From Candidatus Obscuribacterales bacterium (GTDB taxonomy: Bacteria > Cyanobacteriota > Vampirovibrionia > Obscuribacterales > Obscuribacteraceae): a DNA stretch of 64,000 bases. The position numbers were made by a program, and so were the translations under genes. The notes under the pieces were generated by a model. That model worked only from the letters and a program-made list of their open reading frames with translations. It made no database searches and had not been told where the DNA came from. Below, piece by piece: positions 1,703 through 8,961 of the stretch. Positions within the stretch are counted from its first letter, which is position 1. Each line of letters begins with the position of its first letter. The stretch spans positions 63,191-127,190 of the forward strand of contig JAIELX010000059.1 in NCBI GenBank assembly GCA_019752635.1, read 5' to 3'.

Positions 1703-4036
1703 TTACTTTCCGGAGGCTACTTCTATCAGCTCCGGTAAAATGGCTCCGACTACTATCGCTGCTGCCCCGAGTTTGCCTTTCGCTTCGGAGAGGAATGCTT
1801 TGTATCCGCCTTTGTAAGTACGCTCGATGGCTGCTCTGGCCTTCTCTCTGACCTCTTTGTTCTCGGAGAGCAATTCCTTCTCCAGTCGTTTAGCTTCTTC
1901 CGCTGGGATTCCCGCCGTGCGCAGCAGATCTCTTACAACCCCTTTCTCGATGATTCTAGCTACTTGAGCGGCTCGATCGACCGGAGGAAGAGCCTCCTTC
2001 TCGTAGTCGCGAACTGACGCGTCCACTGGCGCCGGCTTATCTGCTGCTGCTGGCTTTCCTGTCACTCTCAACCCCATTCGATCGTGGACTATCTTCTGCA
2101 CTTCGGGGTTACCTTCTGCATAGAGGCGAACGAGCTTTTCGAACTCAGCTTGTGCTGCCGGTGAAGCATCGGCTTTTGACATTTCGCTAGCTGTGTTTCT
2201 AAGTAAAGACAGTACTTGCTCTGTACTCCTCGGTTGCAGTCCCGATTCTACTTTTGTTCGTGCAGCTTCATTCATCAAATCAATTTGTCGCTTACTAAGA
2301 CGCGGCGCCGCCTCCTCTTTGTCGTGCAGTGTGTTCGCTTTTTCAAACGCCTGCTTCAGTTTATCTACTGTAGGACCTGGTTTCATTAGCTCTTCCCAAA
2401 GTCCGCTCGATTTCATAACTTCTTCGGAGAACAAACTGATGCGGGCAACCATTTCAGTTCCGGTTTCGCCTGTACGTGTTAGGCTACTAAGTCCCATGTT
2501 GACGCGTGTTTTCTCAATGTCATGTTTGCGACGCTCAACCGGGTCTGTTGGCTCGACTTCGCGTTGCTTGGCGCCTTCTTGCATGGATACTGCTTCCGGG
2601 AATTTGCCCTTCTCTGCAAACCAGCGAACCCGCGACAGAAGCGCGTCGGCCTCGGCACCACTGAGCCCGAGCGCCTTCAATTGTTTTCGTCCTTCTTCGT
2701 TGTCGTACTGCTTTACGAAGCGATCAAACTTGTCTTTGAACTCCTTTGATATCGGCGAGTTCGAGAAATACTTGAAGAGCTCTTCGTTCACTCCCTGATT
2801 TGCCGCTGTCTCCATGATTGGTGCCTCGTTTTTTGCGAAGGCATGATCCAGATCAATGTTAACTACTGACACACCGCCACCGCGGCGCGGAACAATTCGG
2901 AAGTTACCGGCATGTGCATCATGGTCTCCATAAATTAGTCGTTCGAGAAATGCTTGCTCGATCTCTCGGCGTAGGCGCGGGTCTTCTTTCATAAGAGTTG
3001 GAATGTCTTTGCCCTTGCCGAGCTTTATTTCCATCTCCAGGTTGAAGTCTTCTCCTGCTGAAACTTGAACTGAACCAAACTTCTGCTCACCGTTGACTTC
3101 GAAGCGTCTCACGCTGGTCGGGGGAAACCCGTTGTCGAATCCAAGCATCTTGTTCAAATCATAGGCCGCCAACTCTTTGCGAACTCGTGCTACAGCCTGC
3201 GCCTGGTTCATGTTGCGAAGGTAGACGTTGTAAGTCGTACCGTCCTCAGCTTTGACCTTGCCGGTATATTTCTCGTGTCCGGAGTTTCCTCCTCTTTTGG
3301 ATTCGGGCTCGCCAACTATCTCGCCTTTCGCAAGGTCTTGTTGAAATTTGTCCGGATGTGGAACCACCAGACCTGCAACGCGGAGCGGTTCCGCTGCTTT
3401 GGGTGCCTTGCCGCCTTCCAGTTGTGGAGAATTCGCAAAGCGAAGCGAGACCACATCTGCAAGGTAGATTTTTTCGCCTGTGCCGATTTTTCGCTCTTTG
3501 CTGTCTTTGTCGGCGACGACAAACGTTCCGTTTGTCGAATTGAGATCTCTGATGAAGAGTCCCTTCTCATCGCGACCGATAACGGCATGTCGGCGGGACA
3601 TTCCGGGAAAGTTTATACCGTCTTTGCCCCGCTCCAGGACGTACTCTCCACCGACAGGTACGTTGATGGTGAGTTCCACCGCACCGAACCGTAGGGTCGC
3701 TTTGCCGGCGTCAGTGGCTTCCGGGGCGGGTTTTTGTGCGTCGCCGATTGCAGGCTTCTCTTCTTTCTCCGGTTCGCCGTCTTTCTCGTTACTTGAGTCG
3801 GCTGGAGGATTTGTGCCTGTGCTCTTCTCTGCGTCGCCTTCAGGAGCCCCGGTGCCGCTGTCCTGTTCCGAAGAGTCGAACAAAGTTATTTCCGGCAACT
3901 CGAGTTTTGCGCTTGTTCTGTTGTCGGCTGGCACCACTGGTGCGCCTTCCGCTTCGGCTAAAAGTTTGTCCGATGTCTGTTGAACTCCACGTGGTTCAAC
4001 TTCATTGTCGACATCCGAAAACAGCTCTTTGTCCAT
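1703..4036 (-). CDS. FHA domain + PI3/PI4-kinase-like (atypical kinase) protein with conserved C-terminal module (paralogue A)
   Basis: 777-aa ORF. FHA signature MSRRHAVIGRDEKGLFIRDLNSTNGTFV (nt about 3437-3697). Kinase-like core: RKELAAYDLNKMLGF..PPTSV, YGDHDAHAGNF (a D-x-H-x-x-N loop, nt 2903-2929) and VNIDLDHAF (nt 2843-2860). The C-terminal tail GGYKAFLSEAKGKLGAAAIVVGAILP is shared with 4558-6579 and 6859-8961. Confidence 0.75.
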   Translation of the reverse strand: MDKELFSDVDNEVEPRGVQQTSDKLLAEAEGAPVVPADNRTSAKLELPEITLFDSSEQDSGTGAPEGDAEKSTGTNPPADSSNEKDGEPEKEEKPAIGDAQKPAPEATDAGKATLRFGAVELTINVPVGGEYVLERGKDGINFPGMSRRHAVIGRDEKGLFIRDLNSTNGTFVVADKDSKERKIGTGEKIYLADVVSLRFANSPQLEGGKAPKAAEPLRVAGLVVPHPDKFQQDLAKGEIVGEPESKRGGNSGHEKYTGKVKAEDGTTYNVYLRNMNQAQAVARVRKELAAYDLNKMLGFDNGFPPTSVRRFEVNGEQKFGSVQVSAGEDFNLEMEIKLGKGKDIPTLMKEDPRLRREIEQAFLERLIYGDHDAHAGNFRIVPRRGGGVSVVNIDLDHAFAKNEAPIMETAANQGVNEELFKYFSNSPISKEFKDKFDRFVKQYDNEEGRKQLKALGLSGAEADALLSRVRWFAEKGKFPEAVSMQEGAKQREVEPTDPVERRKHDIEKTRVNMGLSSLTRTGETGTEMVARISLFSEEVMKSSGLWEELMKPGPTVDKLKQAFEKANTLHDKEEAAPRLSKRQIDLMNEAARTKVESGLQPRSTEQVLSLLRNTASEMSKADASPAAQAEFEKLVRLYAEGNPEVQKIVHDRMGLRVTGKPAAADKPAPVDASVRDYEKEALPPVDRAAQVARIIEKGVVRDLLRTAGIPAEEAKRLEKELLSENKEVREKARAAIERTYKGGYKAFLSEAKGKLGAAAIVVGAILPELIEVASGK

Positions 4037-8961: not shown

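Follow-up and report, generated by a model that had tools for sequence, protein, structure and literature searches.

In the Obscuribacterales, uncultured and non-photosynthetic relatives of the cyanobacteria, we have found a conserved C-terminal tail that is shared by proteins with different enzymatic cores, and whose type follows the type of a giant protein encoded beside them. The tail was recognized in a stretch of 64,000 nucleotides (nt) from a Candidatus Obscuribacterales bacterium (contig JAIELX010000059.1 of assembly GCA_019752635.1, positions 63,191 to 127,190; this whole stretch is called the window below), in which three large genes, A, B and C, end in it. Their open reading frames (ORFs) lie where the original prediction, an earlier reading of this DNA, had placed them, and encode proteins of 777, 673 and 700 amino acids (aa), respectively. 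Proteins identical to A and B occur in a metagenome-assembled genome (MAG) of Candidatus Obscuribacterales with the locus-tag prefix K2W95. The best explanation for the arrangement is that A, the small gene o122, B, C, the small gene o93 and the gene for a protein of 2508 aa (the giant) make up one divergently transcribed, lineage-specific cluster (Table 1).

We propose that the tail tethers the enzyme bearing it to the giant, to the adjacent membrane, or to both, a reading to which we would give a probability of about 0.45, slightly under even odds. It draws on the strong homology of the tails and their C-terminal position in every carrier found, on the adjacency of giant and tail genes across giants of 27–62% identity with varied orientation and clients, and on a tail type that tracks the giant paralogue in 9 of 9 loci. 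The comparisons cover 16 related loci (designated L below; individual proteins carry the letter P), mostly short metagenomic contigs of which several are mutually orthologous.

A conserved tail behind exchangeable cores

When the full proteins were compared by BLASTP, the tails of A and B aligned with an E-value of 1e-30 (40% identity over 184 aa), those of A and C with 2e-27 and those of B and C with 6e-24; amino-acid identity among the three is 33–40%, so that the homology claimed for them is well founded. A profile search of all six-frame ORFs recovered A, B and C as the only carriers in the window. The module is thus shared as the original prediction had it, but its length is not the ca. 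175 aa given there, the alignment of the three describing a helical region of ca. 185 aa. Its conserved elements are a helix of the form 'LEK-LLS-D/E-x-x-R-E-K-A', a helix 'A.V....hP.hh' with a conserved Pro, and 'GG-x-+-x-F..E.KG+.GA', which in the three tails reads 'GG[YM][RK]AF..E.KG+.GA' and is followed by a hydrophobic helix of 16–17 residues. At the DNA level the tails show no similarity except for two patches of ca. 35 nt, which indicates old paralogues kept under selection and not freshly exchanged cassettes; recent recombination or cassette exchange between them could be ruled out on these grounds. Sorting by the PEP-CTERM/exosortase or GlyGly-CTERM systems was also ruled out, since there is no PEP motif and no signal peptide, and the ends are of the E/D-K type.

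In the AlphaFold2 (AF2) model of B, the tail forms two small helical bundles (predicted local distance difference test, pLDDT, 85–95) with a low-confidence linker between them, while the terminal helix has a pLDDT below 53 and is not packed against the rest, as would fit its burial in a partner or in a membrane. The original prediction could not place the module in any named family, and neither could we. The isolated tails of A and B have no Pfam match even at E<=10 and that of C gives only noise (E 0.09–0.5); the PADLOC profiles yielded no credible match, and a 20-member tail profile found nothing credible among the PDB sequences. With NCBIfam the full-length proteins have only noise-level matches over the tail region, and there is no significant tail-sized match among the top 50 Foldseek matches of the B core plus tail model.

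An exhaustive HMMER search of 1.84 billion representative proteins with the tail profile recovered 24 carriers at E<=1e-3, 18 of them at E<=1e-10. In all 24 the tail is C-terminal, and every carrier with a source name comes from the Obscuribacterales. The search method matters here: a word-indexed homologue search with the alignment of the three tails missed all the carriers, a false negative of the prefilter, and did not return C for A, so that negatives of indexed searches are untrustworthy for low-complexity, helical modules. The tails fall into two sub-types. Those of the window type stop 2–6 residues past the helix, whereas those of a long sub-type are more hydrophobic and continue for ca. 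12 further polar residues to a conserved A-T-W-S-G-G-K/R end. When 185,579 species-representative genomes were scanned for the pattern of the long type, two loci came up, both in Obscuribacterales MAGs, and the metagenomes of the Joint Genome Institute (JGI) gave none; the same kind of scan for the short type found nothing in the genome contigs or metagenome contigs covered.

At least eight core types precede the tail. Besides FHA plus kinase, FHA plus pseudokinase, lyase and several cores of unknown type, they include a Zeta-toxin/AAA_33 P-loop kinase (P0021), two FHA domains with a transglutaminase/EDR1-like peptidase (P0026), an EDR1-like peptidase within a protein of 1753 aa (P0029), and FHA plus a transglutaminase-like domain plus a kinase of the A type (P0033), while P0024, P0030, P0036 and P0038 have HExxH motifs. 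With so many cores in front of one tail, the idea of a constant end with exchangeable cargo holds true of the whole family. The literature that we searched holds no description of the tail family, nor of secretion systems or effectors in the Obscuribacterales; neither the libraries nor the literature covered here describe the tail, the giant and o122 families or the neighbourhood rule given below. Modules of ca. 100 aa are also repeated, in N-terminal or middle regions, upstream of lyase, kinase and peptidase cores (P0004–P0010, P0018–P0020, P0026, P0029, P0033), with the patterns 'G..V.Y.GEK..V.G...LL.Q.GRN.DYA...V.DAELK..Y..V.V.IDGK...RY' and 'G..V.Y.GKSW.V.GY...TGDV.L', which may be SH3-like.

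The other end of the proteins is less constant. A similar acidic start had been claimed for all three, and the first 120 aa are indeed acidic (22–29 D+E against 6–12 K+R), with two short motifs at equal positions in A, B and C (residues 5–16, hydrophobic-x-x-V-D/S-x-E; residues 45–58, G-h-h-P-x-h-x-h-D). However, pairwise alignments of the first 62 aa do not rise above shuffles (z = 1.5, -0.4 and 0.3). A motif profile of the B family, run on the A/C family, reached only the 95th–99th percentile of shuffles, with A itself below the 95th; its best match lay at residues 45–63 in most members and at 69–77 in P0015. We regard a common N-terminal leader as weakly supported.

Giant neighbours and tail types

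Homologues of the giant of the window (giant-1) adjoin tail genes in six loci, namely the window, L003, L006, L009, L011 and L016, with E-values from 1e-174 to 0. The order of the window, with a C orthologue, a small ORF and the giant, recurs in L009 (giant at 52% identity). The other loci are arranged differently: in L011 (38%) the giant comes directly after P0029, in L006 (30%) there are tail genes on both sides of it, and in L003 (27.5%) it is divergent from P0036. In the sister genome of L016 (62%) the Zeta-toxin client P0021 is convergent at the 3' end of the giant, where the window has other ORFs, which indicates gain and loss of clients at this position. Those ORFs of the window (17067–19670) are two in number, convergent with the giant gene and without Pfam match, one of 297 aa and the other of 535 aa with two hydrophobic segments.

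An alternative tail is found on B-type lyases (P0004–P0010) and on a protein of 1008 aa (L014 6776–9802). Its layout follows that of the first tail, with helices, a GGY motif, a hydrophobic helix and a basic end (consensus '...LEGK.G...AH+...RG.GGGYG+A.AGG.IG.GIL..AALA.YRS...ERA+V+K'). Homology between the two tail types was considered and rejected (hhalign E 0.07). The lyases with this tail lie beside a different giant, giant-2, in three out of three loci (L013, L014 and L015), and in L014 a second alternative-tail protein stands between the lyase and giant-2. Giant-2 proteins have 1829–1919 aa and share 40–55% identity among themselves and 23–26% with giant-1. The giant family spans 1,830–2,500 aa and has at least two paralogous types in the Obscuribacterales, and the type of the tail agrees with the type of the giant in every one of the nine loci. 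The MAG of the window itself encodes one of the alternative-tail lyases, P0009 (K2W95_24900). Since the tail type switches with the giant paralogue inside one genome, species phylogeny cannot explain the co-variation. A further hint comes from L001 (8265–18008), where a gene of 5854 aa, lying partly in the locus, joins an FHA domain and a kinase core of the A type to a stretch with weak similarity to giant-1, and sits beside the tail-bearing P0033; this fusion hints at a functional linkage of the Rosetta-stone type.

The giant itself offers few clues. In Pfam there is only a sub-threshold HEAT_2 match, with weak HEAT repeats at aa 1430–1506; no PDB sequence matched it, and neither a signal peptide nor a clear membrane span was found. 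Its best-conserved block (aa ca. 590–790, pattern 'FNL...YGYLN...VAVQT...AKDL...YG.K.I..TMDAAM..SG') includes a moderately hydrophobic stretch. Three possibilities were examined and rejected: that the giant is a nucleoside triphosphatase (NTPase; Pfam shows none, and six giants lack a conserved Walker A), that it has internal repeats (none was found), and that it contains a copy of the tail (tail-profile domain scores <=0.2 bits). With the profiles of both tail types against seven giants, all domain scores were <=1.2 bits.

Between C and the giant, o93 has a 90-aa counterpart at 52% identity in the same position of L009 and is absent from the more distant L006 and L011. Its two Cys are invariant and its C-terminus is hydrophobic (Kyte-Doolittle, KD, 1.71). 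It may act as a small partner in the membrane or as a substrate that is modified.

Kinase-like, pseudokinase and lyase-like cores

Both A and C carry an FHA domain scoring above the Pfam cutoff (Table 1), and the sequences matched by the A core in PDB are of FHA proteins only. What follows the FHA domain in A is kinase-like, as had been predicted. Its AF2 model (12 homologues; pLDDT 88.8, predicted template modelling score, pTM, 0.87) has as best Foldseek matches the type II phosphatidylinositol 4-kinases (PI4KII) beta and alpha (9hhm, 4hnd, 4wtv; E 7e-7 to 2e-6, query TM score 0.47–0.53), with generic protein kinases, VPS34 and Rio2 ranking lower. At the level of sequence the likeness is lost: the A core has no match to Pfam kinase families, including PI3_PI4_kinase, and a kinase profile and a kinase fragment were both negative against the PDB sequences. 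The model supports, on structural grounds, a sequence-divergent, PI4KII-like kinase. Present in A and its orthologues are the GNSGHE-Y loop, the catalytic loop D-x-H-x-x-N and the IDLD motif (the latter two as D373-A-H-A-G-N378 and I394-D-L-D397 in A itself), and 9 of the 12 family members keep these motifs. They are lost in the C clade (C, P0017 and P0022), where the orthologues share the same degenerate forms, and this is why A looks active and C looks like a conserved pseudokinase, the degenerate kinase of the original prediction. C has a weak match to TIGR03843 (E 0.0076) that is far under the cutoff.

That the cores differ across the triad was only partly borne out. B is distinct, but A and C align by BLASTP throughout FHA and kinase (439 aa, 36% identical, E 1e-65) and are full-length paralogues, so that there is one core swap within the triad, that of B, and not three. 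On the far side of A, the ORFs 974–1471 (165 aa) and 12–872 (286 aa, truncated) are syntenic with L010 5051–7879 (70% and 78% identity); there, the slot of A is taken by a canonical Ser/Thr kinase of 835 aa without the tail.

The core of B had been called lyase-like, and its structure and motifs agree. The AF2 model of core plus tail, from an alignment of 17 rows, has a mean pLDDT of 86 (above 90 in the core), and its top Foldseek matches in PDB are OspF (3i0u), SpvC (2z8o) and the lyase domains of the class III lanthipeptide synthetases ThurKC (8sao/8sam) and CuvL, several of them at probability 1.0. K217/H219, K252, Y285 and three Arg are invariant in 11 of 11 homologues, and K217-x-H219, K252 and Y285 correspond, in strand-helix-strand order, to K104/H106, K136 and Y158 of SpvC, residues whose roles in catalysis have been described (PMC4159009); the correspondence was drawn by motif and order of secondary structure and not by three-dimensional superposition. 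The SpvC sequence was checked against PDB 2z8m and its K136A mutant against 2q8y. Sequence searches are silent about this relationship: B has no Pfam or NCBIfam match at E<=1, none of the 11 family members matches PF03536 or HopA1 at E<=1, core and tail have no match among the PDB sequences, and hhalign of the B family against SpvC is not significant (E 0.15), the best local match being the FTxY motif. The N-terminus of B is acidic and has no basic D-motif for docking to mitogen-activated protein kinases (MAPKs), that is, a basic cluster followed by hydrophobic-x-hydrophobic. The structural evidence supports B as a putative sequence-orphan clade of phosphothreonine lyases with an intact catalytic tetrad, apart from the two clades that are recognized (PMC4159009).

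Directly after B comes o122, which is 67% identical to a 124-aa ORF of L007. Its C-terminal ca. 90 aa weakly resemble post-lyase proteins of 272 aa (L014) and 247 aa (L015), with E ca. 1e-4; the relative in L013 is only a fragment, which aligns to the L014 protein. The only Pfam match of o122 is a weak one to DUF1292 (E 0.02). Whichever tail the lyase has, a member of this family sits directly after its gene, with the C-terminal motif 'L[TS].[ES]EF..[VL]AP..[MI]D', and no o122-like gene follows A or C. Going by this position, o122 is a candidate cognate regulator, inhibitor or chaperone of the lyase. A kinase gene is also found near the lyase: of the A type and beside it in the window and in L007, a canonical Pkinase beside it in L010, and a Pkinase gene at most a few kb away in L015 and L013.

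Table 1. Features of the gene cluster in the window, and members of the o122 family in related loci
Feature	Position	Strand	Description
Gene A	1703..4036	minus	777 aa; N-terminus acidic and disordered, then FHA, a PI4KII-like kinase that looks active, an insert specific to A, and the shared tail; full length identical to NCBI 'FHA domain-containing protein' (P0012); orthologues P0013, P0014 at 65–70% identity
A FHA	3422..3685	minus	ca. aa 118–205; PF00498, E 2e-08, 35.0 bits (cutoff 20.7)
A kinase core	2567..3394	minus	aa 215–490
A loop	3266–3292	minus	GGNSGHEKY
A catalytic loop (putative)	2900–2929	minus	GDHDAHAGNF
A Mg-binding motif (putative)	2837–2860	minus	NIDLDHAF
A tail	1706..2260	minus	aa 593–777
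A hydrophobic helix	1724–1771	minus	LGAAAIVVGAILPELI
o122	4178..4546	minus	122 aa, acidic, pI 5.25; directly downstream of B
Gene B	4558..6579	minus	673 aa from ATG; acidic N-terminus, phosphothreonine-lyase-like core, shared tail; full length identical to K2W95_20970 (P0001)
B possible alternative start	6615	minus	GTG, 36 nt upstream of ATG
B lyase-like core	5170..6159	minus	aa 141–470
B motif	5920–5934	minus	VK217-L-H219-V
B motif	5812–5829	minus	Y-K252-TFDP
B motif	5725–5739	minus	GFTI-Y285
B motif	5572–5595	minus	KRVSVERD
B motif	5272–5286	minus	TGRPA
B tail	4561..5112	minus	aa 490–673
B hydrophobic helix	4570–4617	minus	AGAAAIVAGTIIPQVI
B–C intergenic region	6580..6858		divergent; separates A<-o122<-B from C->o93->giant
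Gene C	6859..8961	plus	700 aa; acidic N-terminus, FHA, pseudokinase, shared tail
C FHA	7156–7416	plus	PF00498, 37.8 bits (cutoff 20.7)
C pseudokinase	7507–8346	plus	putative
C degenerate motif	7987–8016	plus	GDKAFEAKDF, in place of catalytic motif
C degenerate motif	8050–8076	plus	LNKGIERGF, in place of catalytic motif
C tail	8401..8958	plus	aa 515–700
C hydrophobic helix	8899–8946	plus	ASAVALVAGPVIAALL
o93	9056..9337	plus	93 aa, conserved, between C and giant gene
Giant	9479..17005	plus	2508 aa, uncharacterized
o122 family, L007	1534–1908		
o122 family, L014	12909–13727		
o122 family, L015	7943–8686		
o122 family, L013	10903–11103		

Proposed role of the tail and genomic setting

In the model that we favour, the tail, with its two helical bundles, its GGY-type motif and its hydrophobic helix, would serve as an address label for the enzyme fused to it, holding it on the neighbouring giant, on the cytoplasmic face of the membrane beside the giant, or on both. 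A would be an FHA-guided kinase, at the same time writer and reader of phosphothreonine, C a reader or regulator built from FHA and pseudokinase, and B a phosphothreonine/phosphoserine lyase, an eraser whose action is irreversible and leaves a dehydro-amino acid behind. A common platform would bring the three together on common substrates or on each other, with o122 as the cognate partner of the lyase, likely its regulator or inhibitor. In relatives, the Zeta-type kinase, the transglutaminase-like peptidase and the HExxH proteins would be plugged into the platform through the same tail. Besides the evidence named at the outset, the fusion protein of L001 and the kinase genes near lyase genes in five loci favour this model. 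The last ca. 20 residues are the sole hydrophobic window of A, B and C, the N-termini being acidic and hydrophilic, without signal sequence; the missing signal peptide, and the chemistry of FHA, kinase and lyase, which needs the cytoplasm, point to a cytoplasmic setting. Bacterial tail-anchored proteins include Ser/Thr kinases (PMC3087755), and SLMAP, which has FHA plus a tail anchor, recruits a phosphatase complex (PMC5663475). Where delivery or anchoring had been predicted for the constant ends, anchoring has gained ground, through a giant neighbour that co-varies with the tail, and delivery has lost it, for lack of secretion genes in the DNA scanned. More tentatively, and with odds clearly below even, one may extend the scheme to a new system found only in the Obscuribacterales, with a non-repetitive giant family of two or more types, each recruiting its own enzymes by a cognate tail, lyases and FHA-kinases among them, in an endogenous system of eliminylation.

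Several observations weigh against the model. In A, B and C the terminal helix would make a short membrane span of marginal hydrophobicity (16–17 residues, KD 1.5–2.05, summed Hessa dG +3.5 to +7.6 kcal/mol), so that the hydrophobic helix of the original prediction is there but its quality as a span is marginal; in distant family members the helix is clearly more hydrophobic (KD 2.1–2.8, dG -1 to +3). No giant-1 homologue was found in L005 over 7–10 kb on each side, nor in L004, where the DNA reaches ca. 10 kb to one side and only 1.4 kb to the other, and the neighbour in L001 is a different giant. Many of the loci, being orthologous, do not count as independent samples. The giant has no recognizable repeats that could supply multiple docking sites and, as it holds no copy of the tail, any interaction between the two would have to be heterotypic. 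The enzymatic assignments are also open to doubt. The position expected for the ATP-binding Lys of strand beta3 is Arg or His across the A family, and A may therefore not be a conventional kinase; a Lys at another position may take its place. The structural match of the B lyase is modest (TM 0.38–0.43 on the target, E 3e-3 to 2e-2), and its assignment combines this match with the motifs, short of significance at the sequence level.

There are several other possible explanations for the cluster. Three of them are compatible with docking to the giant and differ from our model mainly in the biological role. One would be that the enzymes are secreted effectors or polymorphic toxins, as the original prediction supposed, with the leader as secretion or packaging signal, the core as payload, the tail as anchor in the target membrane, the giant as carrier, translocator or co-secreted factor, and o122 as chaperone or immunity protein. 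The repertoire is effector-like (an OspF/SpvC-fold lyase and a PI4KII-like kinase of eukaryotic type, with the Zeta toxin and EDR1/transglutaminase-like peptidases in relatives), the ends are constant while the cores vary, and a small gene follows each lyase gene. The marginal hydrophobicity of the helix would also fit, since secreted membrane-targeted effectors need such hydrophobicity if they are not to insert into the cell that makes them. The Vampirovibrionales, the sister order, are predators (PMC4451040). Against this, Pfam scans of the larger window ORFs and of the 16 loci revealed no genes of secretion systems or contractile injection (the window ORFs left out of these scans include 37186–38779, 43661–44182, 46164–47829, 55740–56959, 58938–60629 and 63328–63957). 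The N-terminal similarity is statistically weak and the termini are acidic, not signal-like; to our knowledge, no known secretion signal is strongly acidic in this way. Polymorphic toxins have their constant module at the N-terminus and not, as here, at the C-terminus, B lacks the MAPK-docking D-motif of OspF/SpvC, there is no cassette exchange at the DNA level, the guanine plus cytosine (GC) content is that of the rest of the window, and FHA with a conserved pseudokinase is typical of endogenous phospho-signalling. We therefore find the effector logic unlikely. An intracellular conflict or defence system, such as has been described from multicellular bacteria, is another alternative, in which the giant, of HEAT/TPR type, would be sensor or scaffold and the tail an adaptor that recruits suicide or effector enzymes (kinase, lyase, Zeta toxin, peptidases), set loose on proteins of the cell itself upon infection. 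It recalls the effector-associated domains (EADs), helical adaptors on varied effectors beside a large core protein (PMC7159879), the effector sets overlap in peptidases and kinases, FHA domains are seen in such systems, L004 has a caspase-like neighbour, and clients are gained and lost between close genomes (as with the Zeta-toxin client of L016, which is not at that spot of the window). But an adaptor copy in the core protein was looked for and is absent, the six giants examined have no conserved Walker A, there is no mobile-element context, and PADLOC returned only noise (a match of A to PDC-M70A at E 0.0037 and 14.6 bits, with B, C, o122, o93 and the giant unmatched), so that defence seems to us rather improbable.

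Recurrent adjacency of kinase and lyase would also be expected if A and B were the two halves of a split Ser/Thr dehydratase, A phosphorylating and B eliminating on a dedicated substrate (e.g., o93, the giant or the S/T-rich leaders) and so introducing dehydro-amino acids, as happens in the biosynthesis of class III–V lanthipeptides, with the tail joining the half-enzymes. There is a precedent in the CaoK/CaoY heterodimer of a kinase and a separate lyase in class V lanthipeptides (PMC9486802), and o93, small, conserved and with its invariant Cys pair, could be such a substrate. This idea, to which we attach little weight, leaves unaccounted for the FHA domains, the pseudokinase and the tails on Zeta kinases, peptidases and HExxH proteins; moreover, o93 is absent from the distant loci, and neither cyclase nor protease/exporter nor recognizable features of a precursor peptide are present. 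Finally, A, B and C may be ordinary, independent tail-anchored proteins, the tail being a juxtamembrane linker plus anchor spread by duplication and the proximity of the giant inherited synteny. A C-terminal hydrophobic helix without signal peptide does fit the bacterial tail-anchor class, Ser/Thr kinases included (PMC3087755), and several of the loci are orthologous, so that adjacency in them is not independent evidence. However, the adjacency holds down to 27% giant identity with changed orientation and clients, the tail type switches with the giant paralogue within one genome, and ca. 165 aa of conserved, confidently folded helical domain before the anchor exceed what a linker would be. This explanation, too, is a long shot in our opinion.

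A docking or anchoring module on interchangeable enzymes follows a logic already known from dockerins, EADs and tail anchors. In the cellulosome, a constant C-terminal dockerin is borne by diverse enzymes and a giant scaffold is encoded alongside, in an extracellular, Ca-dependent system with repeated cohesins. The present tail has no homology to dockerins, the giant has no repeats, and the setting is apparently cytoplasmic. EADs are small alpha-helical adaptors found on many effectors beside a large core protein, in multicellular and cyanobacterial lineages (PMC7159879), but they are homotypic and occur in the core protein as well, while here the giant is without tail copy or NTPase and the tail ends in a hydrophobic helix. 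Bacterial tail anchors share the lack of an N-terminal signal and the single hydrophobic helix within the last ca. 20–45 residues (PMC3087755); in our proteins this helix has 16–17 residues, is Ala/Gly-rich with a conserved Pro and is preceded by a folded module of ca. 165 aa, and distant members continue to the conserved A-T-W-S-G-G-K/R end. SLMAP/STRIPAK also joins an FHA reader to a C-terminal tail anchor and brings a pThr-removing activity to phosphorylated kinases (PMC5663475), yet it is eukaryotic and not homologous, has coiled coils and uses PP2A as the eraser, so that the analogy is functional only.

Among enzymes, the OspF/SpvC lyases resemble B in fold, being its top four to five Foldseek matches with probability up to 1.0, in the order of elements (K-x-H strand, helix, catalytic-K strand, FT[IL]Y strand) and in having invariant Arg residues at hand to bind phosphate. 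They differ in that the core of B has ca. 330 aa against ca. 200 and the TM score is only 0.38–0.43, in that B has no PF03536/HopA1 match, MAPK-docking motif, type III secretion context (in the loci scanned) or fusion to kinase or cyclase, and in the acidic disordered N-terminus and C-terminal tail of B. The type II PI4-kinases, of the PI3/PI4-kinase-like branch of the protein-kinase-like superfamily and the best structural match of the A core, share with it the D-x-x-x-x-N loop and the I-D-x-D Mg motif; unlike them, A is bacterial, lineage-restricted and fused to FHA, has a dead paralogue in C and carries Arg/His at the beta3 Lys. In class V LanK/LanY, a separate kinase and an OspF-related lyase likewise cooperate as a complex (PMC9486802), but there the kinase is APH-like and not PI4KII-like, and here there is no precursor, cyclase or biosynthetic cluster.

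Phosphothreonine lyases have so far been met in two settings, as type III effectors that put host MAP kinases permanently out of action and in the biosynthesis of lanthipeptides and thioamitides. A lyase clade with intact motifs in a free-living, non-pathogenic lineage, beside FHA-kinases and a small partner, would point to endogenous irreversible dephosphorylation. If this is true, the eliminylation of phosphoproteins would be an endogenous mechanism of bacterial regulation or conflict, beyond a weapon of pathogens or a step towards peptide antibiotics. The co-variation of tail and giant provides a testable hypothesis of modular enzyme recruitment in a little-studied branch of the Cyanobacteria, and the annotation of dozens of giant proteins listed as 'hypothetical' in Obscuribacterales genomes can start from the tail profile and from the giant and o122 families.

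The cluster lies in what is otherwise ordinary chromosome, with PBP1, amylase, transporters and transfer RNAs (tRNAs), and the GC content is uniform across the window, the triad region included. A consensus scan for promoters and terminators was uninformative, sites being no more numerous than in shuffles. Ca. 3 kb downstream of the giant gene, tRNA-Lys(CTT) and tRNA-Arg(TCT) adjoin on the minus strand (19949–20112), and no signs of integrases or mobile elements were noticed near this pair. At 22 kb from the triad, also on the minus strand (30900–35617), an exosortase of the EpsH family (519 aa) overlaps by 4 nt with a VIT-domain protein of 1053 aa.

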